Origin: Myxococcota bacterium
GTDB taxonomy: Bacteria > Myxococcota > JACRCW01
NCBI GenBank assembly: GCA_040752415.1
Contig: JBFMGU010000238.1
Span: 1 to 16,481, forward strand
Length of the DNA: 16,481 bases
Direction: 5' to 3'
Shown here: positions 1 through 15,500 of the stretch, in pieces
Layout of the letters: every line of letters begins with the position of its first letter
How positions within the stretch are numbered: position 1 is the stretch's first letter
Program-made: the position numbers and the translations under genes
Notes under the pieces: model-generated
The model's database searches: none
What the model was told of the DNA's origin: nothing
Seen by the model: only the letters and a program-made list of their open reading frames with translations

Positions 1-69
1 GCGCCGATTCTGCGCGTCAGCAGAGCCTTGTGGCGCAGTCATTCCTGCCTGTGGCGACGTCGCGGGCGG

Positions 70-1671
70 TCAGTTGATGCCGCGGAAGGTCTTGCCGCGA
101 CCTTCACCGCGAACGGGATCCCCATCACGCACCACGGGAATGCCGCCGTTGACGACGTGACGCATCCCGGTGGGGAACTGGATCGGATCGGTGAAGGTGG
201 CGTTGTCGATGACGGTGCTGAAGTCGAACGCCACCAGGTTGGCGCGCTTGCCCTTCTCGACGACGCCGTGGTCCTTCAGTCGCATGGCGCGTGCGGCCTG
301 GGAGGTCATCTTACGCACGGCCTCTTCCAGCGTCGTCAGCTTCTTCTCCCGCGTCTGGCGGCCCAGGATGCGCGGATAGGTCCCGAACGCGCGCGGGTGC
401 GGCCGGCCACCCAGCAAGCCATCCGTGCACGCGTTGACCCACGGCAGCTTCCACAGCGCGTCGACGACGTCATCGCTCTGGCTGAACGACACCATGGCCA
501 CGCCCAGGCGCTCGCTGGCCAGCAGGTCCAGCGCGAAGTCCAGCGCCTCCACTCCCGCCGCGTTGGCAGCGTCCTCCAGCGTCTTGCCCACCACCTCGGG
601 ACGTCGGCCGCTGGGCACGTCGGCGAGGATGATTCCCTTGGCGCGCGACCACTTCCAGAAGTTGTCCCAGTGGCTCGGCTGCTGGCTCTGCATCTCAGAG
701 CGGATGCGCGCGCGCGTGGCCTTGTCGTTGAGGCGCTCCACCACCTTGTCGACGCCACCCTCGTGCATCCACGGCGGAAGGATGGCGCCCAACATGGTGG
801 AGCCGGCAATGTACGGGTACTGGTCCGCCGTCACCTCAATGCCACTGCGACGCGCCTCCTCCACCTTGGCAATCAGCTCCTCCACCCGACCCCAGTTCTC
901 CCGCCCGGCGATCTTGAAGTGGCTGATGTGGAGCCGCACGCCGCTGGCACGACAAATCTGGAGGCACTCCTCGACGCCATCCAGGATGTAGTCGCTCTCA
1001 CTGCGCATGTGGATCACGAACGCGCCGTCCCGCTTGGCCACCGGCTTGCACAGCTCAATGAGCTCCTCCGCGTTGCCGTATACGCAGGGCGGATAGATGA
1101 GGCCGGTGGAGATGCCGAGCGCGCCCTGCTCCAGCCCCTGCTCGACGAGGGCCACCATCTTCCGGACTTCCTCCGGCGTGGCGTGACGATTCTCCATGCC
1201 CATCACCACCGCGCGCACCGCGCCGTGCGGGATGAGGTACGTCATGTCCACGTGCGGCTTCACGCGGTCGATCTCGTCGAGATACGTGCGCACGTCGCGC
1301 CAGGCCCAGGACACCGGCGGGTCACCGTCGAGACCGGCGAGGCGACGCCGCGTATCCGCCACGTCCTCCTCCTTCACCGGCGTGACGCTGATGCCGTCCT
1401 GTCCCAGCACCTCCAGCCCCACGCCCTGGCGGACCTTGGGCGGAAGGTCCGGCTCGACGAGAATCTTGAGATCGCTGTGGCTGTGCGTATCCAGGAAGGC
1501 CGGCGCCACGACGAAACCCTTGCAGTCCAGCGTGTTGCGGCCCTTCAACGTGCCGGGCGGCGCCACCTCCGCAATGCGGTCACCGGAGATTCCCACGTCG
1601 GCGTGTCGACGCGGCGCACCGGTTCCATCCACCACCTCACCACCCGAGAGCACCCAATCCAGTTGAGACAT
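70..1671 (-). CDS. N-acyl-D-amino-acid deacylase (D-aminoacylase) family amidohydrolase
   Basis: About 533 aa. Shows the N-terminal 'GGEVVDGTGAPRRHADVGISGDRI' beta-domain, the metal motif DTHSHSD, IHMRSE, HISHFK, ADQYPY, CTDG and HPRAFGTYPR. ATG at 1671 follows an AAGGTG SD-like site; the GTG at 1674 is an alternative start. Confidence 0.9.
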   Translation of the reverse strand: MSQLDWVLSGGEVVDGTGAPRRHADVGISGDRIAEVAPPGTLKGRNTLDCKGFVVAPAFLDTHSHSDLKILVEPDLPPKVRQGVGLEVLGQDGISVTPVKEEDVADTRRRLAGLDGDPPVSWAWRDVRTYLDEIDRVKPHVDMTYLIPHGAVRAVVMGMENRHATPEEVRKMVALVEQGLEQGALGISTGLIYPPCVYGNAEELIELCKPVAKRDGAFVIHMRSESDYILDGVEECLQICRASGVRLHISHFKIAGRENWGRVEELIAKVEEARRSGIEVTADQYPYIAGSTMLGAILPPWMHEGGVDKVVERLNDKATRARIRSEMQSQQPSHWDNFWKWSRAKGIILADVPSGRRPEVVGKTLEDAANAAGVEALDFALDLLASERLGVAMVSFSQSDDVVDALWKLPWVNACTDGLLGGRPHPRAFGTYPRILGRQTREKKLTTLEEAVRKMTSQAARAMRLKDHGVVEKGKRANLVAFDFSTVIDNATFTDPIQFPTGMRHVVNGGIPVVRDGDPVRGEGRGKTFRGIN

Positions 1672-1684
1672 CACTTCACCTTCT

Positions 1685-3706
1685 TCATGCGGGAGTCGGC
1701 AGCAGGAACGGTGCGCTGACGTGGCTGACGTGGTCCTTCTCTCGCACCGCGTCGAGCATCACGCACAGCACCTGCGCGTAGTTCGTGTGCAGCCGGGCAT
1801 CGGGCGCCACGTCGTCAAGAGCGTTCTCCGGCGGGAGGACCGCGTCCTGGCCGTTGAGCCGGATGCGGAACGGTCCCTCGTGATACACGCGCGCACCGCC
1901 GCCACGCTCCTCCAGCGCGCACAACACACCGTCAATGCGCGCGTCCACGCGCCAGGTTCCGTCCGCCTTGCGCTCGACGTGGAACCCATCGCGGTACGGC
2001 GTGTCCTTCCAGCTGTGGTGCGAGCCGAAGAAGCGCGGCTTGACCACGTAGGGCCCGCCGTCCTCGGGACAGAACACATCGCAGTTGCCGCACTCGTTGC
2101 AGAAGTCGGCGAAGTTGGCGAGCTGGTGGTCCTTGCCCACGCGCACCGCTTCGTCCTTCTCGCGCACCAGCTTACCGGCCTCCACCTTGTAGACGGCCGC
2201 CGTCACCTCGCGCACCGCGGTCTCGAAGGAGAAGTTGGCGTCGTTGGGGCAGACGGGGATGCACTTGTCGCAGTTGATGCAGTCAAAGAACCGCAGCTGG
2301 GAACCCACCTTGCGCGGCGGCTTGCTGTTCTTGGCGGCGGCAAAGCGCGGGTTGGTGAGCGCGGCCTTGGCGACGTGCGGCGTGTTGAGCCGGGCCGCCT
2401 GGTCCACGTGCAGGTCTCCACCTTCCGGCGCGTTCGGGTCGATGGCACGCGCGCGCTTGAGCGCCTCTTCACGGTTGCCGAATGCGTTGAGGATCCACTC
2501 GCGCACGTTGTTGGCGCCCACGTCCGCCATGCGCTTCTCGACGATGGGGAAGTACTTCCCGAGGCGCGAGTAGCCACCAGGCCGCAGCAGGTCGGTGCAC
2601 ATGGTGATGGGCGTGAGTCCCAGCGCCACCATGTCCGCCGCGTTCTCGCGGTCCACGCCGGCGGAGAAGGAGATGGGCAGGCCCGGCGGAAGGTGCGGCC
2701 GCAGCTTGTCGAGCAACTGCAACGCCACCACGTGGAGCGGCTCCCCCGACGTGTACATCTCCTTTTCCGTCTTGGGGAAGAAGCTCTTGTGATTGTGGAC
2801 GATGAGCGTGTTGGTGAGCTTCACGCCGAAGGTGAGCCCGCGGCTCTTCGCGCGCTCCGTGAGTCGACCAATGATGTCCAGCGCCTGGTTCCACTGCAGG
2901 TCGTTGTCGAACGCGCTGTCGGGGGTGCGGAGCTCGTCGTAGCCCAGTTGACCGCGCACCACGTCGCGCACGCCGTCACGACCGAGCAGCGTGGGATTCA
3001 GCTTGACGATGAGGTTCAGCCCCAGGTCATCCATCAGGTAGTTGCAGATGCTCTCGATCTCGTTGGCGGGGCAGCCGTGGAACGTCGACAGCGTCAGCGA
3101 GTTGGCCAGCCTGGGTGACACCTGCAGACCCGACCAGCGTGCGAGTGGACCCGTGAGCGCATGCAATCTCTCGTCGATGAGCTGACGCGCGTTCATCATC
3201 TGGCGGATGAAGCCGGTGACCTTCTCGCTCTTGATGCCCTCCAGGTTGTAGCCGCAGGAGAGATCGAAGATGAGCGGGCTCTGCGCCATGGGCTCGCCCA
3301 GCTCACGCAGCACGTGGATGAGGATCCAGGCATTGATGTATTCGCTCAGCGACTGGCTGACGCGCAGCTCCTGGCTCCACTCGACGTTGAACCCGACGGT
3401 GGCGGCGTCAATGCACGGACGCGGAATCTTGAGCTCGTCGAGAATCTGGACGGTCTTGAGCTCCATGACGCGACCACCCGCCAGGTACGCCAGCACGATG
3501 TTCTGCGCGAGCTGGGAGTGCGGTCCGGCGGCGGGACCAAACGGCGTGGCGGCGGTCTGTCCGTGGAGCTTGATGGAGAGGTCACGACCCGGCAGCCCGG
3601 TGAAGAAGGAGCGACGCGGCAGGTCAAAGATGGCGTCCTTCTTCTCGCGCTCGACGAGCATGCGTGACAGCAACGTCGGGAGGGGGAGGGGGACAAGCTC
3701 GGCCAT
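1685..3706 (-). CDS. ygfK: YgfK-like oxidoreductase (DHODH/PreA-like barrel + 2x[4Fe-4S]), short form lacking the central FAD/NAD(P)H module
   Basis: 673 aa. The motifs TPFGPAAGPHSQLAQNIV, ELKTVQILD, FNVEWS, GYNLEGIK, TLSTFHGCP, VKLNPTLLG, GVKLTNT and TDLLRPGGY match YgfK as I recall it. The C-terminus has CINCDKCIPVCP and CNECGNCDVFCP ferredoxin motifs. GGAG SD upstream. Confidence 0.88.
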   Translation of the reverse strand: MAELVPLPLPTLLSRMLVEREKKDAIFDLPRRSFFTGLPGRDLSIKLHGQTAATPFGPAAGPHSQLAQNIVLAYLAGGRVMELKTVQILDELKIPRPCIDAATVGFNVEWSQELRVSQSLSEYINAWILIHVLRELGEPMAQSPLIFDLSCGYNLEGIKSEKVTGFIRQMMNARQLIDERLHALTGPLARWSGLQVSPRLANSLTLSTFHGCPANEIESICNYLMDDLGLNLIVKLNPTLLGRDGVRDVVRGQLGYDELRTPDSAFDNDLQWNQALDIIGRLTERAKSRGLTFGVKLTNTLIVHNHKSFFPKTEKEMYTSGEPLHVVALQLLDKLRPHLPPGLPISFSAGVDRENAADMVALGLTPITMCTDLLRPGGYSRLGKYFPIVEKRMADVGANNVREWILNAFGNREEALKRARAIDPNAPEGGDLHVDQAARLNTPHVAKAALTNPRFAAAKNSKPPRKVGSQLRFFDCINCDKCIPVCPNDANFSFETAVREVTAAVYKVEAGKLVREKDEAVRVGKDHQLANFADFCNECGNCDVFCPEDGGPYVVKPRFFGSHHSWKDTPYRDGFHVERKADGTWRVDARIDGVLCALEERGGGARVYHEGPFRIRLNGQDAVLPPENALDDVAPDARLHTNYAQVLCVMLDAVREKDHVSHVSAPFLLPTPA

Positions 3707-3730
3707 GGCGGGCTCCAGGATGGTCAGAGG

Positions 3731-5014
3731 TCAGGACAACTTGTTCCACATCTTCTGCGCGGTCTCGCGACAGCGGTGCTTGAGCGCGGCCTCATCCACC
3801 AGCGTGAAGCGCCCACCGCGCATCACCACCTGCGCATCCACCACGACGTCGCGCACCGGCCACGGCGAGGGACCGAAGAACATATGACCGAACACGGTGT
3901 TCTCGGTGAGCGGCGTGGGCGGGTCGTACGCGGTGACCACGGCGTCCCCGACGTAGCCGGGCTGCAGCGCGCCGAACTTCCCGCCAAAGTGCCGCTCCGC
4001 GAGCTTGAAGTTGTTCTGAAGGAGCGCCAGCGCGTCGACGGAATCCGTGGGCCCGTACTGGCGGCGCCCGTTGTGGAACACCGCGCGCCCCTCGGTGATC
4101 ATGTCACCATCCATCCCGTCGGTGCCGAGCGTCACCATGCTCTTGAAGCGCTTGGGCTGCTGGTAGCCCACTGCGTTGTTGAGGTTGGAGCGCACGTTGT
4201 GGATGACGGGCGTGTCGGTGCGGGCCAGTTCCCGGATCTCCGCCTCGTCGACGTGGACCGCGTGCGCCACCAGCGAGAGCGGCCCCAGCGCGCCGGCCTT
4301 GGAGAGCCGGGTCACGGCAGGCATGTTGTACTTCGTGGCGCTGTGCACCTCGTCGGAGAGCGCTTCCGCCACGTGCACGTGGATGCCGGTGCTGGTGGCC
4401 TTCATGGCGTCGACGGCGGCGGCCAGCGTCTCCGGTCCCACGGTGAACGGCGCGTGCAGGCCCACCAGGCCGCGCAGCATGCGGTCACCCTTGATGCGCT
4501 CGATGAAGCGCTTGCACTCGGCAATGCCGCGCTGCCCGTCGGTGTCGCCGTGGCGGTCGGTGGCGCCGTAGCAGAGGACGCCCCTCAGGCCCACCTGGCG
4601 CAGCGCATCCGCGATGATGTCGAGGCTGCCGTCGATGAAACGCGGGGACTCGTGGTGGTCGAACAGCGTGGTGGTGCCGGCGCGCAGGGCCTCCATGGAC
4701 GCGGCAAACACGCTCATGCGGAGGCTCTCCTCGTCGAGCGCGCAGTCCATCTTCCACCACACCTGCTCCAGGATCTCCACGAAGGAGCGCGTGGGTCCCT
4801 TGGGCAGCGGCATGCCGCGCGCCAACCCGCTGTAGAGGTGCGTGTGCGCGCAGACCATGCCCGGCCAGATCACGCAGCCGGTGCAGTCCACGCGCTCGTC
4901 GTCGTCGTTGGGGGCGCGATCGACCACGTGACCGTCTTCCAGCACCACGTCGCGCATGGCCACGTGGACAGGATTGAGGTCCACCACCGTTCCGCCGCAA
5001 AGAGCCACGCCCAT
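3731..5014 (-). CDS. ssnA: SsnA-like metal-dependent amidohydrolase (chlorohydrolase/aminohydrolase family)
   Basis: 427 aa with PGMVCAHTHLYSGLARGM, GTTTLFDHH, GLHAPFT, HVHVAE, AHAVH and LGTDG motifs. It is adjacent to the ygfK-like gene, as ssnA is in known clusters. Confidence 0.85.
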   Translation of the reverse strand: MGVALCGGTVVDLNPVHVAMRDVVLEDGHVVDRAPNDDDERVDCTGCVIWPGMVCAHTHLYSGLARGMPLPKGPTRSFVEILEQVWWKMDCALDEESLRMSVFAASMEALRAGTTTLFDHHESPRFIDGSLDIIADALRQVGLRGVLCYGATDRHGDTDGQRGIAECKRFIERIKGDRMLRGLVGLHAPFTVGPETLAAAVDAMKATSTGIHVHVAEALSDEVHSATKYNMPAVTRLSKAGALGPLSLVAHAVHVDEAEIRELARTDTPVIHNVRSNLNNAVGYQQPKRFKSMVTLGTDGMDGDMITEGRAVFHNGRRQYGPTDSVDALALLQNNFKLAERHFGGKFGALQPGYVGDAVVTAYDPPTPLTENTVFGHMFFGPSPWPVRDVVVDAQVVMRGGRFTLVDEAALKHRCRETAQKMWNKLS

Positions 5015-5017
5015 TGC

Positions 5018-6265
5018 TCACCCCACCCTTTCCACGACGTCACGCACCGCATCCAGCCGGGGCGCCACCTTGTGCGCCGACGGAGCGGCCCGCAGCGCGC
5101 CACGTGAGTCCTTGAGCCCGTGCCCGGTGACGTAGTGCACCACGCTCTCGTCCTTACCGACGATCCCGCGCTGCTTCGCCACGTGGATACCGGCCAGCGC
5201 CGCCACCGCCGTGGGCTCGGCAAAGACGCCGGTGTTGCGCGCCAATCGTGGCATCCACTCGTCAATGAGCCCGTCGGGGACGGTGACCACGGCACCACCG
5301 CTCTCGCGAATGGCCCGCAGCGCCTTCACCGCGTTGCGCGGCGTCCCGACGCAGATGCTGTCCGCAATGGTCTTGGCGTCCTCGGGGACGAACGTCTCGG
5401 TGCCCTGGACCCACGCCTTGTGCAGCGGTGAGGAGCCCTCCGCTTGCACGGCGAGGATGCGGGGCGTGCGGGAGAGGACGCCCATGGCCTTCATCTCCTT
5501 GAGGCCCTTCCAGATGCCCGCGGTGGTGCACCCGTCGCCGAGCGGCACGGCCACCCAGTCCGCGGGCTCGCTGTTGCCCAGCTGCTCACCCAGCTCCAGG
5601 CCGCCCGTCTTCTTCCCCTCGACGAGGAACGGGTTCACCGCGCAGTTCCGGTTGAACCAGCCGAAGGCGCCCACGGCCTGCTGACACAGGTCATAGGCCT
5701 GGTCATAGGACCCTTCCACGAGCAGCACGTTGGCGCCGTAGATGAGCAGCTGCGCCAGCTTGGCCTCCGGCGCTGTGTGCGGGACGAAGATGAACGCCTT
5801 CAGCCCGAAGTGCGCCGACCACCCGGCAAGGCTGCTGGCCGCATTTCCCGTCGACGCGCACGTGATGACCTTGGCGCCCTGTTGCGCGGCGCGCCACACG
5901 CCCAGCGAGCTTGCGCGGTCCTTGAAGCTGGCGGTGGGCTGGCGTCCGTCGTCCTTCACGCGCAGCTGGCGGATGCCCAGGTCACGCGCGAGGGCGGGGA
6001 AGTCGTAGAGCGGGGTCCAGCCAATGTGCAGCTGCGGCGCCGTCCACGACGGGTCCACCGGCAAGAGCGGCCGGTAGCGCCACACGTTGAAGCTGGTGTC
6101 GGACGTCAGCGCGGCGGGAGTGTACGTGCGGAAGATGCGCTCGTAGTCGTAGATGACGTCGAGGATGCCCTTGTCGGGGCCGCACGCGGGACAGGTGTAG
6201 TCCACGCTGCCGTACGCATGGGTCTTCCTGCACTGGACGCATTCAAGGTGACGGATGTGCTGCAC
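5018..6265 (-). CDS. Threonine synthase-family (fold-type II) PLP-dependent enzyme with N-terminal zinc ribbon
   Basis: Shows a CVQC...CPAC ribbon, the PLP-lysine motif PTASFKDR, ASTGN, EGKKT, EPT and VTGHGLKD. The true start is probably the GTG at 6265, 5 nt after a perfect AGGAGG SD (6271-6276), rather than 6391. The stop is 3 nt before the ssnA ATG. Confidence 0.87.
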   Translation of the reverse strand: MQHIRHLECVQCRKTHAYGSVDYTCPACGPDKGILDVIYDYERIFRTYTPAALTSDTSFNVWRYRPLLPVDPSWTAPQLHIGWTPLYDFPALARDLGIRQLRVKDDGRQPTASFKDRASSLGVWRAAQQGAKVITCASTGNAASSLAGWSAHFGLKAFIFVPHTAPEAKLAQLLIYGANVLLVEGSYDQAYDLCQQAVGAFGWFNRNCAVNPFLVEGKKTGGLELGEQLGNSEPADWVAVPLGDGCTTAGIWKGLKEMKAMGVLSRTPRILAVQAEGSSPLHKAWVQGTETFVPEDAKTIADSICVGTPRNAVKALRAIRESGGAVVTVPDGLIDEWMPRLARNTGVFAEPTAVAALAGIHVAKQRGIVGKDESVVHYVTGHGLKDSRGALRAAPSAHKVAPRLDAVRDVVERVG

Positions 6266-6384
6266 GCCCACCTCCTGGAACCCACGGCTTCTAGCCCAAA
6301 AGCCCGCCATCGCGCGCCCGGTTTTCCGCATTTCCGCGACGTCGCCTTCTTCTCGAACCGGGGCCCTCAGCCTGAACCATCTCA

Positions 6385-6419
6385 TGGACACGAACTTCGT
6401 GGAACACTAGATTCGTGGC
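6385..6419 (+). promoter_or_regulatory. Sigma70-type promoter of the TA operon overlapped by two palindromic operator sites
   Basis: TGGACA (6385-6390), a 17-nt spacer, then TAGATT (6408-6413), with 6 nt between it and the ATG at 6420. A perfect palindrome CACGAA-C-TTCGTG (6389-6401) and a degenerate copy CACTAG-A-TTCGTG (6405-6417) overlap it. Confidence 0.7.
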
Positions 6420-6656
6420 ATGAAGAACCTGACCATCACGGTGCCCGAGGAAGTTGCCGCGTGGGCCCGGGTCTGGGCGGCCAAGCACAACACCAGCGTG
6501 TCCAAACTGGTGGGTGAGATGCTTCGGGAGCGCATGCAGCAGGAGGATGCGTACGAGGCGGCCATGAGGTCGTTCCTGGCGCGCAAGCCCACGGTGCTGA
6601 GTGGCGCACCGTATCCCAAGCGCGAGGAGCTGTATGACCGCCCGCGTCTTCGTTGA
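6420..6656 (+). CDS. Ribbon-helix-helix (CopG-like) antitoxin, VapB-type
   Basis: 78 aa. 'MKNLTITVPEEVAAWARVWAAKHNTSVSKLVGEML' fits the RHH pattern, and the C-terminal 'REELYDR' is typical of PIN-associated antitoxins. It overlaps the downstream PIN gene. Confidence 0.85.
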   Translation: MKNLTITVPEEVAAWARVWAAKHNTSVSKLVGEMLRERMQQEDAYEAAMRSFLARKPTVLSGAPYPKREELYDRPRLR

Positions 6657-7077
6657 CACCAACGTGCTGGCGTATGCGCAGGACCTCCGGGATGCCGTCA
6701 AGCAGCAGCGCGCCCACGAGTGGGTGACGTCGCTGTGGCGGCAACGCAACGGGCGTGTCAGCGCGCAGGTGCTCAACGAGTTGTACGTGACGCTCACGCA
6801 GCGGTTCCGACCAGGGATGAGGAAGGAAGAGGCCCGCGACTTCGTGCGCGAGCTGATGACATGGAGTCCCGTGCCGGTCGACGCCGTGCTCGTCGAGAGG
6901 GCGTGGTCGCTGCAGGACCGGTTCTCGCTGTCATTCTGGGACGCGCTGATTGTCGCGGCGGCGCATGCGTCCGGCTGCACGCACCTGCTCAGCGAGGACC
7001 TGCAGGATGGCCAGGACATGGAGGGCGTGGTCGTCGTCAACCCGTTTGCGCACGCACCGGCAGAGCTGGAACGCTGA
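6634..7077 (+). CDS. vapC: PIN-domain toxin (VapC family ribonuclease)
   Basis: 147 aa with VFVDTNVL, SAQVLNE, SFWDALIVAAA and LLSEDLQDG acidic PIN motifs. ATG 6634 follows a GAGGAG SD (6624-6629) and the gene overlaps the antitoxin by 23 nt. Confidence 0.9.
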   Translation: MTARVFVDTNVLAYAQDLRDAVKQQRAHEWVTSLWRQRNGRVSAQVLNELYVTLTQRFRPGMRKEEARDFVRELMTWSPVPVDAVLVERAWSLQDRFSLSFWDALIVAAAHASGCTHLLSEDLQDGQDMEGVVVVNPFAHAPAELER

Positions 7078-7107
7078 CCGTCTCCTCGTCGAGGGAATGC
7101 GCGGGAT

Positions 7108-9711
7108 TCAGCCCTTCACAATGCCCGCGGCGGCCGGGGAGTCGCGCATGGGCAGCTTGTAGCGACGCTTCCCCTCGAACTTGGCCAACGCACCCGCCAC
7201 CGCGCCCGCCGTGGGCACCAGGCCAATCTCACCCACGCCCTTGGCGCCAAACGGACCCTCCGGCTCATGGTCCTCGACGATGATCACGTCCACCTTGGGC
7301 ATGTGCTTGGCGCGCAACACGCCGATGTCGCGGATGCGCGTGGTGACGGGGAAGCCGTCCTCGTCGGTGGCCAGCTCCTCGGAGAGCGCGTAGCCCAGGC
7401 CCATGTGCACGGACCCTTCAATCTGGCCCTGGCACAGCGCGGGATTGATGGCCCGACCCACGTCATGCGCGGCAATCACGCGCTCCACCTTGCCCTTGGC
7501 GTCGAGGATGACAACCTGCGTGGCAAATCCGAACGCGGTGTGCGTCTTGACCTTGTCAACCTTGGCGCCGAGTGGCGTGGTGTCATTGCAGAGGAAGTCA
7601 CCGGCGTAGACCTTGCCGGAGAGGTCCTTCAGGGTGGCGCCCCCGTCGAGGTCCGCCTTGAGCTGCTTGGCGGCCATGATCACCGCGTTGCCGCCGAACA
7701 GCGTGGCGCGGGAGCCCGTGGTCTGCCCGGAGCCCAGCGGATAGATGGTGTCCACCTTGGCACGGAACACGCTCGCGGGAAGGCCCGTCACCTCGCACGC
7801 GCACTGGATGAGGATGGTGAGCAGGCCCTGACCCATCTCGGTGTAGCCGTTGTACAGGCTGACGGTGGCATCCTTCTCGACGACGAGCCGGCACCGCCCC
7901 CACTCCGGCACACCGTTGCCGATGCCGCTGTTCTTGATGCCGCAGCCAATGCCCACCGCTTTGCCTTCGGCCTTGGCCTTCTCGTAGTGCGGCTTCACGG
8001 CTTCCAGCGTCTTCTTGAGGCCCACGCTCTTCTCGAGCACCTGGCCCGTGCAGAACACGCTTCCCACCTGCAGCGCGTTGCGCCAGCGGATTTCCCACGC
8101 ATCCAACCCCAGCTTCTCGGCCAGGAGGTCCATGCAGCCTTCCATGGCGAACGCCGCCTGGTTGGCCCCGAACCCGCGCATGGCGCCGCAGGGGAGGTTG
8201 TTGGTGTACGCGGCGATGGCCTCCACGTCGACGTTGGGCACGTCATACGCACCACACGCGTGACCCGCCGCGCGCTCCAGCACCTTGCCACCGACGGAAG
8301 CGTACGCGCCGCTGTCGCCGAGCATGCGGGCCCAGACGGCGGTGAGCTTGCCGTTCTCGTCGGCGCCCACGCGGTAGTGCAGGCGGATGGGGTGCCGCTT
8401 GGGGTGCATGCGGATGGAGTCATCACGCGTGAGGGTGACGCGCACGGGCTTGCCGGTCATCCTGGCCAGCAGGCACGCGTGGGCCTGGACGCTCATGTCC
8501 TCCTTGCCGCCGAACGCGCCGCCGTTGGGCACCAGCACCACGCGGATCTTGTCCTGCTCCACGCCCAGGAAGCTGGCGCACTGGCGCTGGTCGTCGAAGA
8601 TGCCCTGGCCTTGCGAGTAGAGCGTGATGTCGCCGGTGGCCTCGGGAACGGCGAGCGCGGACTCCGGCTCCAGGAACATGTGCTCAATGCGCTGCGTCTG
8701 CCACGTGCCTTCCACGACGTACTTGCTGTCCTTCAGCGCGTCCTCCGCGTTGCCGCGGGTGATGACGCTCTTGCTGAGCACGTTGTTGGGCTTGGGCGAG
8801 ATCTTGGGCGCGCCGGGCTTGATGGCCTCCTCGGGGTCGGTGACGGGAACCTTGACCTCGTACTCCACCTCGACGAGCGCCGCGGCATCCCGCGCCTGAC
8901 GGGGCGTGTCCGCCGCCACCACGGCCAGCACGTCCCCCACGTAGTGCGTCTCCTCGCCCTCGGCGATGAAGCCGGGCCAGTCGTCGTAGAGGATGCCGTA
9001 GCAGCGCTTACCGGGGACGTCCTTGTACGTGGCCACCGCGCGCACGCCAGGGGCCGCCAGGGCCTTGGTGACGTCGATCTTGATGACCTGCGCGCGCGCG
9101 TGGTCGGAGAAGCGGACGGCGCCGTGCAGCATGCCTTCCACCTTCATGTCGGCCACGTAGGGGTTCTCGCCCAGCGCGCGCGCCTTGCCGTCCACGCGGT
9201 CCAGGCTGGTTCCCACGCGACCACTCTCGTCGCGCGGAGGCAGCGCCTCACCACGCTTGACGGCGGCCGCCAGCTGGATGGCCTCGATGATCTTCACGTA
9301 CCCGGTGCAGCGACACAGGTGCACGTCGAGCTTCTTGGCAATCTCCGCGTCGGTGGGATTGGGGTTCTTCTCCAGGATGCTGTACGCGCGCATCACGATG
9401 CCGGGGATGCAGAACCCGCACTGCAGGCCCGCCTTGGCAACGAAGCAGTCCGCGAGCAGCCTCCGGTCCGCCTCGGGGAGTCCCTCCAGCGTGGTGACCT
9501 TGGCGCCCTGCTGCTTGGAGCACGGGACCGCGCACGTGGTCACTGCCCACCCGTCGACGAGCGCGGTGCAGCAACCGCATTGCCCCTGCGGCGCGCATCC
9601 GTCCTTGACGCTGGTGACTCCGCACTCTTCCCGGATGGCCTCCAGGAGCGTGCTGCGGTCATCCACCTGCAGGGACTTCTCCTGGCCATTCAGCGTGAAC
9701 TTGAACTCCAT
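7108..9711 (-). CDS. xdh: Xanthine dehydrogenase-family molybdenum hydroxylase, fused [2Fe-2S] + Mo-cofactor subunit (resembles the selenium-dependent XDH type)
   Basis: 867 aa. N-terminal GCAPQGQCGCC and QCGFC...LCRCTGY 2Fe-2S motifs. Mo-domain motifs QRIEHMFLEPE, GGAFGGKE, VLER, GAMRGFG, TEMGQG, TGSR and AKGVGE (catalytic Glu). GGAGG SD at 9719-9723. Confidence 0.9.
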   Translation of the reverse strand: MEFKFTLNGQEKSLQVDDRSTLLEAIREECGVTSVKDGCAPQGQCGCCTALVDGWAVTTCAVPCSKQQGAKVTTLEGLPEADRRLLADCFVAKAGLQCGFCIPGIVMRAYSILEKNPNPTDAEIAKKLDVHLCRCTGYVKIIEAIQLAAAVKRGEALPPRDESGRVGTSLDRVDGKARALGENPYVADMKVEGMLHGAVRFSDHARAQVIKIDVTKALAAPGVRAVATYKDVPGKRCYGILYDDWPGFIAEGEETHYVGDVLAVVAADTPRQARDAAALVEVEYEVKVPVTDPEEAIKPGAPKISPKPNNVLSKSVITRGNAEDALKDSKYVVEGTWQTQRIEHMFLEPESALAVPEATGDITLYSQGQGIFDDQRQCASFLGVEQDKIRVVLVPNGGAFGGKEDMSVQAHACLLARMTGKPVRVTLTRDDSIRMHPKRHPIRLHYRVGADENGKLTAVWARMLGDSGAYASVGGKVLERAAGHACGAYDVPNVDVEAIAAYTNNLPCGAMRGFGANQAAFAMEGCMDLLAEKLGLDAWEIRWRNALQVGSVFCTGQVLEKSVGLKKTLEAVKPHYEKAKAEGKAVGIGCGIKNSGIGNGVPEWGRCRLVVEKDATVSLYNGYTEMGQGLLTILIQCACEVTGLPASVFRAKVDTIYPLGSGQTTGSRATLFGGNAVIMAAKQLKADLDGGATLKDLSGKVYAGDFLCNDTTPLGAKVDKVKTHTAFGFATQVVILDAKGKVERVIAAHDVGRAINPALCQGQIEGSVHMGLGYALSEELATDEDGFPVTTRIRDIGVLRAKHMPKVDVIIVEDHEPEGPFGAKGVGEIGLVPTAGAVAGALAKFEGKRRYKLPMRDSPAAAGIVKG

Positions 9712-9823
9712 GCGCGTTCCTCCCGGGCGTCGGAAAACCAGCGGAGGCTACGGACAGGAGCAGCACGGGTCAATCCGCTTTCCTGCTCGCGGAGGGGCCG
9801 GTGCGTGTGGGATGGAACGGGCC

Positions 9824-10255
9824 ATGCGTCCCGGTTTCGTGTTGCTGATGCTTGCGTCGTGGGTTGGCTGCTCGGGGGATGCGTCTCCAAGCACCACCGA
9901 GGTCCAGGAAATCCGCGGCGTGTGCGCACCCGTCGTCACGCGCAGTGATGAGCGCTTCGAGATCGAGGTGAGCGGCGGCTGCGACCCGGACCGTCAGAAG
10001 TACTCCTGCGGCGTGCAGCGGTCAGGCGGCATTGTGGAGGTGAAGCTGCTGGGCCCGTCTCCGTCAGGGAGCTGCGTCACGGTCACCAAGCCCTGCTCGG
10101 TCCCGCCGCTGCCGGAGGGGACGTATCGCTTCGAGTTCCTGCGTGGGGAGTCGTTCAACCAGGAGGTGGGCGCCGCGCCGCAGCACCCGGTGTTCCAGTG
10201 TCCCAAGCCGGACGCAGGCACTCCTTCCGACGGTGGCGCCGACCCCCGCGGCTGA
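9824..10255 (+). CDS. Hypothetical Cys-rich lipoprotein
   Basis: MRPGFVLLMLASWVG|C resembles a signal peptide II with a lipobox. It has six further Cys and a C-terminal PDAG...DGG low-complexity tail. Alternative ATG at 9812. Transcribed divergently from xdh. Confidence 0.65.
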   Translation: MRPGFVLLMLASWVGCSGDASPSTTEVQEIRGVCAPVVTRSDERFEIEVSGGCDPDRQKYSCGVQRSGGIVEVKLLGPSPSGSCVTVTKPCSVPPLPEGTYRFEFLRGESFNQEVGAAPQHPVFQCPKPDAGTPSDGGADPRG

Positions 10256-10945
10256 TCACAACGTGCCCGCTGCCTTGCGCAGCACCCCCGCGGGGTCGTC
10301 GCGAATGGGGTCGCCGTGGGCGCCCAGGAGCAGCTTGAGCTGAGGCGTCTCCGCCAGCTCGAGGAGGAACTGCTTCAACACGGCCTTCTTGGCCACCTGC
10401 CGGAACCGCACAATGCGCGGCAGGCCGGCACCACCGCCGGGCACGCTGAGCAGTTTCATGAGCAGGCCCTTGGCGTGGACGTTCCCGATGACGTCGGTGA
10501 AGACCAGTGCGCGGCCTCCCGCGGCGTCGAGGTCCAGCATGATCTCACCGTGCTTGAGGCCGGGCACCACGCGGTGGCGGATGCCCAGCGGGGTGAGCAG
10601 CTGATCCGGTCCCCCGTCGACGGAAACCTTGCCGGCGAGCCGCTGCGCCGCGTCTGGCAGGGCCACCACCTTGAGGTCGGGGTAGCGCGCCTTGAAGAAC
10701 GGGGCGTCCATGATGTGGAACGCGTGCGGCACCACCATCACTTCCGGCTTGCCCAGGGCTTCCAGCTTGCGCATGCCCTCGTCGTGCATGGCCACCACGC
10801 TGTAGAGCAGCAGTCCGCCGCTGGGCAGCTTCACGATGGTCATGCTGCGAGGCAGTGGGAAGGGAAGGGAGCCAGCCACCTGCCAGATTCCAGGCGCAAT
10901 CTCGACGGGGGGCTGGTGGGGATAGATGGTGTGGGCGCTCGTCAC
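10256..10945 (-). CDS. Hypothetical protein, metallo-beta-lactamase-like fold (DUF4336-like)
   Basis: 229 aa with 'EIAPGIWQV...RSMTIVKLPSGGLLLYS', 'LEALGKPEVMVVPHAFH', 'LVFTD' and 'LLGAHG' patterns typical of this group. GTG start. Confidence 0.7.
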   Translation of the reverse strand: MTSAHTIYPHQPPVEIAPGIWQVAGSLPFPLPRSMTIVKLPSGGLLLYSVVAMHDEGMRKLEALGKPEVMVVPHAFHIMDAPFFKARYPDLKVVALPDAAQRLAGKVSVDGGPDQLLTPLGIRHRVVPGLKHGEIMLDLDAAGGRALVFTDVIGNVHAKGLLMKLLSVPGGGAGLPRIVRFRQVAKKAVLKQFLLELAETPQLKLLLGAHGDPIRDDPAGVLRKAAGTL

Positions 10946-11127
10946 GGGCCAACAAGTACTGTGGGTGGCGAGGCGCTGTCACGGTGCCGCGAGGGGGCGC
11001 GACGAAATCCCGGGACCAGGTGCTCCCGCGCCGGATCCGCGGTCGTGACCTCGGCATGCCACGGTCAGTCCTGCGTCGCGACGACGCGGCCGGGTGGTGA
11101 GCAGGACGTACCCTTTCCCCTTGCCTG

Positions 11128-11206
11128 CCAATCTCATTGGCGGGAGCCAAGAGCGTCGTCCCAATGGAGCCGCACCCAGTCTCATTGGTGGGAGCCAGGT
11201 GCGTCG
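11128..11206. repeat. Two imperfect 31-bp direct repeats (48-bp period), each with a hairpin core
   Basis: CCAATCTCATTGGCGGGAGCCAAGAGCGTCG (11128-11158) versus CCAGTCTCATTGGTGGGAGCCAGGTGCGTCG (11176-11206), 27/31 identical. Confidence 0.8.
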
Positions 11207-11387
11207 CTGCAGGAGGGCCCCCAGGGAGCCGGACCCGGTCGCCAAGCGGGTCGGCGGTGAAGCCACGAGCGCGTGCACGACGGTGTCGGCCCAAGCGCGA
11301 GCAACGTCCTGGGCAATGGACCCGGCAGCCTGGCGACGTTAAGGGGTGCGGTTGGGCGTTGTTCGTCTCCATCGTGCATCGAGCGCA

Positions 11388-14300
11388 ATGACATCACCTT
11401 TGCCTCCCGCCACGTTTCAACGCACCTGGGCCACGCCCCTGGGCAGGTTCCTCCGTGCGCACCATCGGACCGCCTCAGGGATGCGTGGGGCGGCCTACGC
11501 CCGCCTTGGCCACGTGCAGTCGTTCCGCGCCCAGGGCCAGAACGTGGTCGTCGCCACCGTCGCGGGCAGCCAGCCCCATCCCTACCAGGTCAAGCTGGAG
11601 GTGTTCCGGGAGGGTCTGCTCACCAACTGCAGCTGTCCCGTCGGCTTCGACTGCAAACACGCGGTCGCCGCCGGGCTGGTTCTCGCCACGCAGCACGGGC
11701 TGTCGACGGCGACAGACGTCCGCGTTGCACCCTCACCGCGGCCCGTGAGGCGCTCTCCTGTCGTCGTCCGCGCGCCTGCGGCCGCTCGGCGTGAAACACC
11801 TCGCGCACTTCCACCGGCTCCAGCGGCCACGGACCCGGCCCCTGCACGTGACGCCCAGGACGTCATCCTCGGCTGGCTGGCGCGCCCCGCTTCCGGCGTG
11901 ACGACGCATGACCTGGACCTCCGCGTCGAGTGGCACAGCGTGGTCTCGTCTCACGGTGGAATGGCGCAACTGCGCGCAGAGGTGGTCCTGACCCCACCGG
12001 GCGGACGCAGCGGAGCCCAGCACCCGGCGGTGGTGGGGCACATCCGGAACGAGATCACACTGGGCCGGCTCCAGCCTGCACGTGCGCGCGAGGGCCACTT
12101 CCTCCAGTGGCTGGGCACCACCGGCGCCTGGCGGGTTTCCCACGAGCACGGTGACCCGCGCCATTACGTCGCCGTCGCAGATGCCGGAGAGTGGCTGGCG
12201 CGCTGGTCCGGGAGCGGACTGCTGTGGTGGCGCGGCGGCGACGAGGTGGTGGCCGCCCCGGAGGTTGCGCGCTTCGTCGTCCGGACGGAGGACCGGGAGC
12301 CGCAGTGGATGCTGGAGCTGCCGCGGGGAGGGCAGGATGCGCTGCTGTTGCCCCTGTCCGACGTCGATCTGCTGGTCAGTGACGACTCCCCGCCCGACTT
12401 CCCACGCATCCATCTCCGTCGTGGCGCCGCCCTCCACCGGGTCGATGCCGGCGGACTGACGCTGCCGCTCCTCGAGGCGATTCGCCGCGCGCCTCTGCTC
12501 CCGCTGGACCGCGTGCGGCAGTTGCCCCAGGCGCAGCACGTCCTGGCGCCGTTCCTGGACCGGGCCGGTGCGCTGCCGGTGCCGCGCGAGGTGGACGTCC
12601 TCCCCAGCGCCGCCTTCAAGCTCAGCCCGATGGGGGAGCTGGAGATCACCGCCTGGGCCGAAGCCGCCGACGGAACGCGGTTCAACTATGCCTTCAACGC
12701 GCACTGGACCGTGTCCCTGCCCGCGTCCCTCGACACGACGTTGGAGCCCATGCCCGCCGAAACGCCCGCCGCTCCGCCCGCGCCCGACGCCGCCACGGCG
12801 CGCGCGCTGTTTGTCACGCCACGACGGGAGGACGTGGCAGCGCTGGAGAGCTGGCTGCAGGCACTGACGGTGGATGTGCTGCGCGCCGCGCGGGTTGCGG
12901 ACGCGGTCTTGCGCGGGTGGACGGAGAAGAGCGCGCGGCCGGCGCTCCTCCGGGTCTGGGAGACCCGACCGGGACACGTGCGCTACCTGGGCAACCGCCC
13001 ATTCCGCGACGCGGTCACACCGCGCCCCCCGCCGCGCTTCCAGGTTCGCGTTGAGCGCAGCGGCATCGAGTGGCTGAGTGTCTCGGTGGGGTTGCAGGAG
13101 GAGCTGGAGAGATTGGACCTCCAGGAGCTGCTGCGCGTGCTGCGGACCGCGCAGGACCAGGAGCTGGTCATCCTGCGCAGCGGGGAGATGTACCGGCGCG
13201 CCGAGCTGGAGCCGTTCAAGGCGCAACTGGAGGCCCTGGCCGACCTTGGCCTGGAGCCCCGTCGTGACGTCGAGGTCCGGCTCCATGCCGCGCAGCTCGC
13301 GGGAGTGCGCGCCGAGACGCTGTCCACGCTGAGCGAATTCTCGTCGGAGCTGGGCGCGCTGGCGGCGGCCATCCGCAAGCACGCGGCGAGCTTCAAGGGC
13401 ATCCCCAAGGCGGGCGTTCCCGTCGCCACCGCGCGCCACCTGCGTCCCTACCAGCGGCAAGGCGTGGACTTCGTGGCGTGGTCGACCAGCATCTTCGGCG
13501 GCGCCCTGCTGGCTGACGAGATGGGGCTGGGCAAGACGTTGCAGGTGCTGGCCGCCCTGACGGCGCTGCGCGCAGGACGCAAGCGCAACCTCCCCACGCT
13601 GGTGATCTGCCCGGCGAGCGTGGTGCGCAACTGGGAGCGCGAGGCGCAGCGTTTTGCGCCCGGTCTGCGCGTCGGCCTCCTGGAGCGCGGCCCCGGGCGA
13701 CAACACGTGCTCTCCCGTCTGGCGCGCCTGGACGTGGTGGTGACCAACTTCGCCCTGGCCCGCATGGAGATTGAAGCGCTCATCGCGCAGCGCTGGCTCA
13801 TGGTCGTTGTCGACGAGGCGCAGGCCATCAAGAACCCTCAGTCCGGCATTGCGCACGCCGTCAAGCGCCTGCAGGCCCGCCACCGCGTGGCGCTCACCGG
13901 GACGCCCATTGAGAACCGTTTGCAGGACCTGGAGTCCATCATGGACTTCGCGGTGCCGGGCCACCTGGGCTCGCTGGACGCGCTCCAGCCCGGGGCCGAC
14001 GACGAGACCCTGGTGCGGGGCCGTCGGATCCTGCGCGCTCGCCTCCGGCCGGTGCTGTTGCGTCGTCTGAAGCAGGAGGTGGCGCCGGAGCTGCCTCCGC
14101 GCATCGAGGAGCGACTGGACTGCGAGATGACACCTGCCCAGCGCAGGCTCTACGCCGCCGAGCTCAAGCGTGCGCGGATGGTGTTGGAGGACGTGCGCGA
14201 CGACCGGGTCGTTGGGCAGGACCGTGTGCTGATGCTGACGGTGCTCACGCGCCTGCGGCAGCTCTGCTGCGACCCTGCGGTGCTGGGCATCACCGGCGTC

Positions 14301-14846
14301 GGCTCGGGGAAGGTGGAGGAGTTCCTGGAGCTGATGACGGGCTTGTTGGAGGGGGGCCACAAGGTGCTGGTGTTCTCTCAGTTCGTGCGCGTGCTCGAGC
14401 GCCTGCGTCCGCTCCTGAGGGACCGCCGTGTGACGCAGTGGATGCTCACGGGCAAGACCCAAGGGCGGGATGCGCTGGTCCGCGAGTTCGAGGCGCACGA
14501 GGGGCCCGGGGCGTTCCTCATCTCACTGAAGGCGGGCGGCAGCGGGCTCAACCTGGTCTCCGCGTCCCAGGTGATCATCTTCGACCCGTGGTGGAACCCG
14601 GCGGTGGAGGCTCAAGCCATCGATCGCACGCACCGCATTGGGCAGCGCAAGACGGTCACGGCGTTCCGGCTGGTCACGCGCGACACGGTGGAGGAGCGCA
14701 TCATGGAGCTGCAGGAGCGCAAGCGCGCACTGGTCCGCGGCGTGCTCGAAGAAGAAGCCTTCAACCGGACGCTGACCCGTGAGGACTTCGAGTTCCTCCT
14801 GGCACCCACCGCGCGCCGGGAAGCAGGCGATCACCCCCCGACGTGA
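11388..14846 (+). CDS. SWIM zinc-finger + SNF2-family (SF2) DEAD/DEAH-like helicase/ATPase
   Basis: SWIM motif CSCPVGFDCKH. Helicase motifs LRPYQ, LADEMGLGKT, VVDEAQAIKN, LTGTPIEN, RLRQLC, LVFSQF, SLKAGGSGLNL, DPWWNP and QAIDRTHRIGQ. The start is uncertain; ATG 11388 was chosen. Confidence 0.92.
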   Translation: MTSPLPPATFQRTWATPLGRFLRAHHRTASGMRGAAYARLGHVQSFRAQGQNVVVATVAGSQPHPYQVKLEVFREGLLTNCSCPVGFDCKHAVAAGLVLATQHGLSTATDVRVAPSPRPVRRSPVVVRAPAAARRETPRALPPAPAATDPAPARDAQDVILGWLARPASGVTTHDLDLRVEWHSVVSSHGGMAQLRAEVVLTPPGGRSGAQHPAVVGHIRNEITLGRLQPARAREGHFLQWLGTTGAWRVSHEHGDPRHYVAVADAGEWLARWSGSGLLWWRGGDEVVAAPEVARFVVRTEDREPQWMLELPRGGQDALLLPLSDVDLLVSDDSPPDFPRIHLRRGAALHRVDAGGLTLPLLEAIRRAPLLPLDRVRQLPQAQHVLAPFLDRAGALPVPREVDVLPSAAFKLSPMGELEITAWAEAADGTRFNYAFNAHWTVSLPASLDTTLEPMPAETPAAPPAPDAATARALFVTPRREDVAALESWLQALTVDVLRAARVADAVLRGWTEKSARPALLRVWETRPGHVRYLGNRPFRDAVTPRPPPRFQVRVERSGIEWLSVSVGLQEELERLDLQELLRVLRTAQDQELVILRSGEMYRRAELEPFKAQLEALADLGLEPRRDVEVRLHAAQLAGVRAETLSTLSEFSSELGALAAAIRKHAASFKGIPKAGVPVATARHLRPYQRQGVDFVAWSTSIFGGALLADEMGLGKTLQVLAALTALRAGRKRNLPTLVICPASVVRNWEREAQRFAPGLRVGLLERGPGRQHVLSRLARLDVVVTNFALARMEIEALIAQRWLMVVVDEAQAIKNPQSGIAHAVKRLQARHRVALTGTPIENRLQDLESIMDFAVPGHLGSLDALQPGADDETLVRGRRILRARLRPVLLRRLKQEVAPELPPRIEERLDCEMTPAQRRLYAAELKRARMVLEDVRDDRVVGQDRVLMLTVLTRLRQLCCDPAVLGITGVGSGKVEEFLELMTGLLEGGHKVLVFSQFVRVLERLRPLLRDRRVTQWMLTGKTQGRDALVREFEAHEGPGAFLISLKAGGSGLNLVSASQVIIFDPWWNPAVEAQAIDRTHRIGQRKTVTAFRLVTRDTVEERIMELQERKRALVRGVLEEEAFNRTLTREDFEFLLAPTARREAGDHPPT

Positions 14847-14915
14847 CCGGGTTGCATCGGGATTCAGGCGGGCGAGTACTGGCACCGTGCAGTAGGGCTC
14901 TGTATCGTTTCAGGC

Positions 14916-15500
14916 ATGCGAGCGGTGGTTCTGGATGTGCCGGAAGACTGGCTCAAGGAGCGAGCGCGCCTTGGGCTGGACCGTCGGGATGAGATGTGGA
15001 ACGGGGTTCTTCACATGGTTCCACCGCCGTCGTTTGAGCATCAGGACCTGGCTGGACAGCTCTTCGGGTTCCTGCTCGTTCGGCTGGCGTCTCGTGGCAT
15101 CCGCGTCCTGTACGAGACCGGTGTGTTTCGCCCGGGCGGGGGTGGGAAGGACTACCGTATCCCTGACATGGTGTTTTTCCGCGCGTCGGACAAGCACCTC
15201 GTCACGGACCGCGGGATCGAGGGTGCGCCACTGGCCGTGCTCGAAGTGCTTTCACCCGACGATGAGAGCTACGAGAAGCTGGACTTCTGGGCAGCGCTGG
15301 GCGTTGCGGAGGTCATCATGATCTCGCCGAAGGACCGCGCCGTGGAACTCTACCGGCTCGCGGGGACCGGCTACGTGGCGACGTCAGCTGACGCGTCGTG
15401 GACGCTCCACGCCGCATCCATCGACGTGCGCTGGTCGCGCCTGCCGCGGATTCCAGCGTGCCTGCGTGTTGAGTGCGGTGGCGAGGCCATGGAAATCTAG
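14916..15500 (+). CDS. Uma2 family (DUF820) PD-(D/E)xK endonuclease-like protein
   Basis: 194 aa with RDEMWNGVLHMVPPPSFEHQ, RIPDM, GAPLAVLEVLSP and EKLDFWAALGVAEV motifs. Confidence 0.88.
   Translation: MRAVVLDVPEDWLKERARLGLDRRDEMWNGVLHMVPPPSFEHQDLAGQLFGFLLVRLASRGIRVLYETGVFRPGGGGKDYRIPDMVFFRASDKHLVTDRGIEGAPLAVLEVLSPDDESYEKLDFWAALGVAEVIMISPKDRAVELYRLAGTGYVATSADASWTLHAASIDVRWSRLPRIPACLRVECGGEAMEI

Follow-up and report, generated by a model that had tools for sequence, protein, structure and literature searches.

The window analysed here is the entire 16,481-bp contig C155 (JBFMGU010000238.1) of a Myxococcota bacterium (assembly GCA_040752415.1; 11.0 Mb in 520 contigs, with an estimated completeness of 96.8% and an estimated contamination of 4.3%). 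Its minus strand carries five genes of a probable variant of the reductive urate (2,8-dioxopurine) pathway. In the order of transcription these encode a xanthine-dehydrogenase homologue in which a 2Fe-2S part is fused to a molybdenum-cofactor (MoCo) part (XDH; positions 7108–9711), a ThrC-like fold-type-II pyridoxal-phosphate (PLP) enzyme (ThrCL; 5018–6391), an SsnA-type amidohydrolase (3731–5014), a short YgfK of 673 residues (sYgfK; 1685–3706) and an amidohydrolase of the D-aminoacylase family (70–1674; PF07969, E = 3.9e-24), after which only 69 nt remain before the contig ends. As the initial annotation had described, the last four lie 3–24 nt apart, with 10 nt between the D-aminoacylase and sYgfK genes, 24 nt between those of sYgfK and SsnA and 3 nt between those of SsnA and ThrCL. 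The GC content of the window is 65–73%, and all five frames appear to be real genes because their codon-position GC follows the pattern of real genes in this genome (GC1 0.66–0.69, GC2 0.42–0.50 and GC3 0.87–0.93).

According to the main text of Li et al. (2025, bioRxiv 10.1101/2025.05.19.654654), XdhD-YgfM converts urate to 2,8-dioxopurine in E. coli, YgfK carries out the reduction and SsnA, a marker gene for reductive urate clusters, opens the ring; HyuA, then YgeW/YqeA, YgeY and YgeX perform the later steps. In the C. difficile variant described there, XdhD occurs without YgfM, and YgfK is replaced by the PydA-like UacX, which lacks a flavin adenine dinucleotide (FAD) domain and for which ferredoxin was proposed as donor. 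The D-aminoacylase homologue UacY (PF07969, modelled on D-aminoacylase 3GIQ) replaces YgeW/YqeA in this variant and was assayed. The main text of Liu et al. (2025, bioRxiv 10.1101/2025.04.24.650524) identifies C. sporogenes XdhAC, a 2Fe-2S plus MoCo enzyme, as a 2,8-dioxopurine dehydrogenase (DOPDH), with its physiological partner not established.

The XDH homologue, SsnA and the short YgfK

The XDH protein passes the TIGR03311 model ('selenium-dependent xanthine dehydrogenase') with 962.5 bits against a cut-off of 830.45, and the window thus contains the XdhD/DOPDH-type molybdenum hydroxylase of a reductive urate cluster. Pfam models recognise Fer2, Fer2_2, the hammerhead domain Ald_Xan_dh_C, MoCoBD_1 and MoCoBD_2 in it, and find no FAD domain. 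A separate FAD subunit is not apparent either: ygfM gave no match in the genome, and every xdhB-like gene (on contigs C109, C445 and C121) belongs to its own three-gene XDH set. The protein is like C. sporogenes XdhAC in being a fused 2Fe-2S and MoCo enzyme without FAD, a likeness of architecture and not of alignment, and we propose that it is of the DOPDH/XdhAC type and would interconvert urate and 2,8-dioxopurine. In contrast to the selenium-dependent XdhAC, it is encoded in a genome that yielded no yqeC, a gene of selenium-cofactor maturation, and a YqeB/XdhC-like match in the N-terminal part only, although selD is present (C171, 7395–8327, plus strand). The latter contains one in-frame TGA, suggesting a selenocysteine-containing SelD.

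The SsnA protein aligns with E. coli SsnA over its full length (35% identity, 434 columns), and NF005540 and TIGR03314 are its best NCBIfam matches. By homology to the assayed enzyme, its predicted reaction is the opening of the pyrimidine ring once 2,8-dioxopurine has been reduced.

Only positions 5–398 and 913–972 of the YgfK model TIGR03315 are matched by sYgfK, and BLASTP against E. coli YgfK gives 42% identity over residues 6–382 (E. coli 7–398) and 31% over residues 479–578 (E. coli 905–979), leaving E. coli residues ~399–904 with no counterpart. What is missing is the GltD-like FAD/NAD(P)H part (TIGR03315 ~437–835), positions which are matched only by other genes of the genome, and sYgfK does not have the full architecture of the NAD(P)H-dependent YgfK/DOPOR family (TIGR03315, IPR017701). 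Two CxxCxxCxxxCP motifs are invariant in 20 homologues. In a fold search, an AlphaFold (AF2) model of the protein (pLDDT 81.9, pTM 0.86) was closest to the solved structures of pig dihydropyrimidine dehydrogenase (DPD) and dihydroorotate dehydrogenase (DHODH), whereas a sequence search against solved structures, DPD among them, returned none at E ≤ 0.001 and no PF01180 match was obtained. Based on the E. coli alignment, the invariant cysteine motifs and the DPD/DHODH-like model, sYgfK is predicted to consist of a catalytic flavin mononucleotide (FMN) barrel and a 2×[4Fe-4S] domain without the GltD-like NAD(P)H/FAD module. It appears to resemble the catalytic core of YgfK and is not a full member of that family, relating to YgfK much as PreA, also an FMN barrel with 2×[4Fe-4S], relates to DPD (1h7w, 7m31).

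Unlike PreA, which is accompanied by PreT, sYgfK has no PreT-like partner that recurs beside it, and no gene for any NAD(P)H/FAD partner recurs in the 84 neighbourhoods described below. Only two GltD-like genes exist in this genome, and we rejected both as partners in trans. The one on C8 adjoins a 1553-residue open reading frame that is of the size of a glutamate-synthase large subunit, judged by length only, and the one on C201, the only PreT-like gene of the genome, sits beside its own PreA and an aminotransferase. We propose that sYgfK would reduce 2,8-dioxopurine with electrons from an external donor. The initial annotation had stated that an NAD(P)H/FAD module is missing from both redox enzymes, and this holds, given the missing FAD domain of XDH, the allocation of the xdhB genes to other sets and the absence of YgfK residues ~399–904.

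The short form is widespread. A protein search with sYgfK matched 7,893 of 8,000 scored candidates at E ≤ 0.001, and the best 120 matches are all 567–718 residues long and carry the source names 'glutamate synthase' or 'putative selenate reductase'. With one genome taken per species, 594 of 600 candidate stretches were confirmed, placing short YgfK in at least 594 species genomes. Gene context was examined in 84 loci with a short-YgfK relative (L014–L093 and L099–L102; the best 80 and four from relatives), in which pathway genes were located by tblastn. About six of these (L062, L069, L082, L088, L091 and L092) carry a long, full-length-type YgfK, with matches more than 1 kb apart, and are included in the counts; many of the 84 are short contigs, so that absences are soft. 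SsnA was found in 47 loci and an XDH of the window type (at least 45% identity) in 32, where it adjoins SsnA in 16 loci and sYgfK in 10; another XDH occurs in 20 and an FAD subunit in 17. Among the downstream enzymes, YgeW is present in 25 loci, YgeY in 23, YqeA in 17, HyuA in 14, a carbamoylase-type M20 amidase in 14, a CN-hydrolase in 11 and YgeX in two. ThrCL accounts for 24 loci, a D-aminoacylase for three and a further PLP enzyme, discussed below, for 40. From these counts, short YgfK has canonical pathway genes as neighbours across many phyla. Among 41 genomes sampled from the phylum, sYgfK was found in five, all with SsnA, and SsnA itself in 19. Together with the family matches, the conserved core bears out the earlier suggestion that the reductive urate/purine pathway exists here in a divergent form outside the gut. 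In the neighbourhood search SsnA, XDH and ThrCL do co-occur with short YgfK, and the D-aminoacylase is not a conserved member of the cluster.

Two PLP enzymes and a D-aminoacylase homologue

The ThrCL frame (PF00291, E = 3.6e-73) probably starts at residue 43 (position 6265), since orthologues align from residues 40–50 and the ESM Atlas record begins there. The protein shares the fold of threonine synthases (ThrC), carries the PLP lysine and an N-terminal Cys4 ribbon of the PRK08197 type, and matches solved ThrCs (1uim, 2zsj, 6cgq and 2d1f) at E = 1e-51 to 1e-56. T. thermophilus ThrC has T88, R160 and N188, which we take to be contacts of the substrate phosphate. These three residues are kept by two solved ThrCs and by three of five paralogues, including this genome's own second ThrC on C508, whereas all 27 ThrCL sequences compared (that of the window and 26 others, one of the 24 loci being left out for an incomplete match) have A, L/T/M and D; the window protein has A, L and D. 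A maximum-likelihood tree places the 27 sequences, drawn from at least 12 phyla, on one side of a branch with support 84/95, the 23 loci alone coming from 12 phyla. A long, fully supported branch separates them from three housekeeping ThrCs, and the other two paralogues are long-branched and of unsure placement. The residue swaps and the separate clade indicate that ThrCL is a distinct enzyme. By the same features it is not a threonine synthase, and its substrate probably carries no phosphate.

In the phylum sample ThrCL (at least 40% identity) was found in 13 genomes, all of which have SsnA, a distribution that also sets it apart from ThrC. Nearby ESM Atlas clusters are all automatically named threonine synthase or PALP and gave no functional lead. 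ThrCL appears to be a dedicated, added enzyme of the pathway. We suggest, tentatively, that it would carry out a PLP-dependent β-elimination or β-replacement on C3 amino-acid end products, most plausibly 2,3-diaminopropionate or 3-ureidoalanine, or one stereoisomer of these. A bypass of a ureido-cleaving step was also considered for ThrCL and found no support in gene context: its occurrence in the loci is not associated with the absence of YgeY/CN-hydrolase, of YgeW/D-aminoacylase/M20 amidase or of HyuA.

Clustering of the neighbours of the short-YgfK loci brought out a second PLP enzyme, a CysK/SbnA-like protein of about 485 residues (PALP485). It is the enzyme present in 40 of the 84 loci, lying next to SsnA in 27 cases and next to ThrCL in 13. 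The 49 loci with SsnA or a window-type XDH divide into 17 with both PLP enzymes, 20 with PALP485 only, two with ThrCL only and ten with neither, and among these 49, PALP485 is found in 20 of the 21 that bear YgeY. In the phylum sample it was found in 16 genomes, all among the 19 with SsnA. The commonest downstream set, seen in nine of the 47 SsnA loci, is YgeW, YqeA, YgeY and PALP485 without ThrCL. HyuA is also missing from this set, and occurs in only nine of the 47 SsnA loci. The genome under study encodes its own PALP485 on another contig (C23), 45% identical to a cluster copy. The gene order XDH-ThrCL-PALP485-SsnA-sYgfK recurs in three loci (L070, L079 and L084), which also hold the nearest relatives of the window ThrCL in the tree, and this suggests that the window operon lost PALP485 from between ThrCL and SsnA.

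These data bear on the earlier proposal that the ThrC-like gene substitutes for dpaL (ygeX). If ThrCL were a non-orthologous replacement of YgeX, it would, with the D-aminoacylase homologue, allow this operon to complete the downstream half of the pathway unaided. YgeX was indeed found neither in the genome nor (TIGR01747) in any of the 41 phylum genomes, the two loci that have it lack ThrCL, and ThrCL is, like YgeX, a fold-type-II PLP enzyme, one in which the T, R and N of ThrC are replaced and an Asp occupies position 188. However, PALP485 is the commoner partner (40 against 24 of the 84 loci), accompanies 17 of the 19 ThrCL loci as well as nearly all YgeY loci, adjoins SsnA repeatedly, belongs to the commonest downstream set from which ThrCL is missing, and has a copy on C23; the operon, moreover, has no gene for 3-ureido cleavage or for opening of the hydantoin ring. 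We regard the replacement as unlikely and ThrCL as probably not a simple stand-in for YgeX. PALP485 is the likelier candidate for that role, as the commoner partner, from its presence in YgeY loci and in the commonest downstream set, and from the phylum-sample counts.

Among solved structures, the D-aminoacylase homologue matches the D-aminoacylase 1m7j (E = 7e-84) as well as 3gip/3giq (E = 7e-75). Inspection of the alignment by eye shows that it retains the His-x-His, His, His, Tyr, Asp and Arg positions of 1m7j, which we presume to bind the metal and the substrate carboxylate, and an Asp stands where 1m7j has Cys, as it does in all four relatives aligned. Our best guess, which likens the protein to UacY by family and by the published description of that enzyme, is a UacY-like 2-ureido hydrolase, which would act on the 2-ureido group of 2,3-diureidopropionate. 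A role as a ring-opening hydrolase is kept as an alternative because the enzyme is rare among the loci, because it occurs in one locus alone with sYgfK, and because HyuA is found in so few SsnA loci.

The locus in question, L057 (8358–14211), comes from a Myxococcaceae metagenome-assembled genome and has a 56%-identical D-aminoacylase homologue directly after sYgfK, flanked by a 3-hydroxyisobutyrate-dehydrogenase-like gene and a methyltransferase. No XDH, SsnA, ThrCL, PALP485, HyuA or other pathway gene lies within 10 kb. The pair, adjacent both there and in the window, could thus be a separate module of a reductase and a ring-opening amidohydrolase for some other N-heterocycle that has come to lie beside purine genes by accident. 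Consistent with such a module, 35 of the 84 loci show neither SsnA nor a window-type XDH, and the scarcity of HyuA in SsnA loci means that another amidohydrolase may open the second ring. We nevertheless think this improbable. In the window the four genes are 3–24 nt apart with SsnA directly upstream of sYgfK, there are many loci in which sYgfK adjoins SsnA, XDH, YgeY, YgeW or HyuA, the 35 bare loci include many short contigs, and every sYgfK genome of the phylum sample also has SsnA.

Remaining steps and neighbouring genes

Of the downstream set known from E. coli and C. difficile, HyuA, YgeW and YqeA (or UacY), YgeY and YgeX, the window contains the possible UacY analogue only. In the 96.8%-complete genome there was no match to ygeX, yqeA or ygfM, a full-length ygfK was not found, and ygeY and ygeW gave only weak paralogue matches, a result that favours the earlier reading. 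The sole canonical downstream enzyme found genome-wide is a HyuA homologue on C506, 41% identical to the E. coli enzyme. C506 (11652–13945) pairs a hydantoinase/dihydropyrimidinase with a CN-hydrolase, and C201 (46275–51196) carries a class-III aminotransferase with the PreT-like and PreA-like genes, so that an ordinary reductive pyrimidine route is present. An M20 amidase on C36 is 61% identical to the cluster copy of locus L019. Uricase, HIU hydrolase (5-hydroxyisourate) and OHCU decarboxylase (2-oxo-4-hydroxy-4-carboxy-5-ureidoimidazoline), the enzymes of the oxidative urate route, were not found in the genome. The steps for which the operon has no gene may be supplied from these other contigs, with PALP485 on C23 for YgeX, the carbamoylase-type M20 amidase on C36, and a hydantoinase/dihydropyrimidinase and CN-hydrolase on C506 that may be shared with pyrimidine catabolism.

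Two small genes on the opposite, plus strand lie in the 716 nt that separate the ThrCL and XDH genes. The first, an antitoxin-type gene of the ribbon-helix-helix (RHH) class (DUF6364; 6420–6656; 30.5 bits against a cut-off of 27.3), overlaps the PIN-domain gene downstream of it (6601–7077; Pfam PIN, E = 5.7e-13) at 6601–6656, the arrangement of a VapBC-type toxin-antitoxin pair. In loci L070, L079 and L084 the XDH and ThrCL genes are adjacent and have no such insert; the pair is an insertion between XDH and the rest of the operon and lies outside the pathway. PALP485 on C23 adjoins a PIN and FitA-like RHH pair (7637–8358, minus strand), and toxin-antitoxin neighbours are thus found at both displaced pieces of the pathway.

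With an insertion between XDH and ThrCL, PALP485 missing from between ThrCL and SsnA and found on C23 beside another PIN/RHH pair, and no YgeY, YgeW or YqeA in the genome, the cluster could be read as a decaying remnant that has lost PALP485 and its downstream genes and no longer supports purine breakdown. The genes themselves argue otherwise. All five frames are intact, of full length relative to their homologues and normal in codon-position GC, the cysteines that bind their clusters and the catalytic positions are conserved, other contigs offer plausible carriers of the missing functions, and no oxidative urate route was found that could take over. Decay is in our view a very improbable account of the locus.

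The remaining content of the window is of other kinds. A 229-residue frame upstream of XDH (10256–10945, minus strand) has a weak DUF4336 match (E = 0.0047) and does not recur in the 84 loci, and was rejected as a member of the system. Further along, the region 11346–15500 on the plus strand encodes a SNF2-family helicase of 1166 residues that has a SWIM zinc finger and, after it, a putative endonuclease of the Uma2 family; the best NCBIfam match of the helicase, to the SCO1167/SCO6262 helicase, is below cut-off, and it is unrelated to the purine genes. A redoxin-like open frame (16079–16481, minus strand; weak Pfam Redoxin match, E = 9.4e-4) continues off the right end of the contig. An Rfam scan of the whole window at E up to 0.1 gave no match, and hence no riboswitch before XDH or the operon; this includes the 545-nt gap upstream of XDH (9712–10255). 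A promoter and terminator scan of positions 1–11400 returned counts at the level of shuffled sequence, and its sole promoter-like site lies ahead of the antitoxin gene.

Probable reductive urate degradation and its proposed electron supply

Taking these data together, we consider it fairly probable, at about 65%, that the window encodes a variant of the reductive urate (2,8-dioxopurine) pathway that works without pyridine nucleotides, namely its upper part together with one or two of the later steps. Homology to enzymes that have been assayed suggests that the FAD-less XDH would interconvert urate and 2,8-dioxopurine, sYgfK would reduce 2,8-dioxopurine at its FMN barrel and SsnA would open the reduced ring; the D-aminoacylase homologue would follow, by family membership and by analogy with UacY. 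As neither redox enzyme has an NAD(P)H/FAD module, an outside carrier would be needed, from which both would take electrons through their Fe-S clusters, as their domain content suggests. The carrier would most likely be a ferredoxin-type protein, which is a guess, because neither a ferredoxin gene nor one for any other donor recurs near sYgfK in the 84 loci.

Besides this lack of a recurring donor gene, several points weigh against the assignment. XDH shares no more than 25% identity with E. coli XdhD (951 columns). SsnA falls below the NCBIfam cut-offs (404.6 bits against 444 for NF005540 and 378.4 against 455.5 for TIGR03314), even though both are its best matches and far above other families, and sYgfK falls below the curated cut-off of TIGR03315 (442 against 835 bits). 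ThrCL passes the thrC model TIGR00260 (191 against 167 bits), and its occurrence shows no relation to whether any ureido-cleaving enzyme is present. The rarity of the D-aminoacylase and its isolated pairing with sYgfK in L057 count here as well. The hydantoinase/CN-hydrolase pair on C506 is more simply assigned to the ordinary pyrimidine route, because PreT, PreA and an aminotransferase are present on C201. The genome is an assembly of 520 contigs with some estimated contamination, and a single-organism origin of genes on separate contigs is an assumption. Counts from related genomes are not independent, and the result from the 41 genomes is a pattern rather than a test. Finally, the roles of sYgfK, ThrCL and PALP485 are all predictions from sequence.

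Compared with the E. coli cluster (ygeW-ygeX-ygeY-hyuA-yqeA ... ygfK-ssnA-ygfM-xdhD), the window likewise brings homologues of XdhD, YgfK and SsnA together. It differs in lacking YgfM and the GltD-like part of YgfK, in having none of HyuA, YgeW, YqeA, YgeY and YgeX in the operon (all but the HyuA homologue are absent from the genome), and in adding a ThrC-like PLP enzyme and a D-aminoacylase homologue. The C. difficile variant is closer in two respects, in that both redox enzymes are without an FAD/NAD(P)H module, with an external donor proposed, and that a hydrolase of the D-aminoacylase family is present, here likened to UacY by family and description. In contrast to C. difficile, the reductase of the window is a truncated YgfK, with an N-terminal TIGR03315 match and no PF01180 match, rather than a UacX of the PydA/DHO_dh type, and HyuA, YgeY and YgeX lie outside its operon.

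The window therefore holds a variant of a known pathway in an environmental bacterium and not a new system. The initial annotation had put the cluster forward as an undescribed system, a view that does not stand beside the FAD-less XdhD, the FAD-less reductase and the assayed UacY described for C. difficile in the main text of Li et al. (2025). Of the rewirings it had listed, the FAD-less redox enzymes and the D-aminoacylase are thus already in print, and the ThrC-like enzyme was not found in the two papers: a term search of the main texts of Li et al. (2025) and Liu et al. (2025) gave no mention of threonine synthase, truncated YgfK, Myxococcota or Acidobacteria. Nor did the literature searched, which was gut-centred, contain the spread of short YgfK, the residue replacement in ThrCL or PALP485 as a partner of SsnA. 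Short YgfK, ThrCL and PALP485 are the undescribed parts.

A broader picture is conceivable, to which we give little weight at present. The 'anaerobic gut' urate pathway might operate independently of pyridine nucleotides in many environmental bacteria, the present one seeming to be without a uricase route, with XDH and sYgfK wired through their Fe-S clusters, directly or via the ferredoxin pool, so that purine hydroxylation pays for ring reduction. Two new PLP enzymes would then stand at the end of the pathway: ThrCL, a descendant of ThrC put to a new use, would release ammonia or urea by elimination, with 2,3-diaminopropionate or 3-ureidoalanine as its substrate, and the other isomer or intermediate would fall to PALP485.

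The reductive urate pathway was worked out as recently as 2025, and discussion of it has centred almost wholly on gut bacteria, whereas the pyridine-nucleotide-independent form predicted here would be common in soil, groundwater and sediment lineages. Automatic annotation obscures it by naming short YgfK 'glutamate synthase' or 'selenate reductase', ThrCL 'threonine synthase' and PALP485 a cysteine-synthase-like protein. Surveys keyed on TIGR03315 or PF01180 would probably record no reductase for such clusters, because short YgfK falls below the cut-off of the former and does not match the latter. Identifying what ThrCL and PALP485 act on, and what donates electrons to sYgfK, would complete the map of anaerobic-type purine catabolism, and could also be a source of NAD(P)H-independent or simpler enzymes with which to engineer urate-degrading strains.

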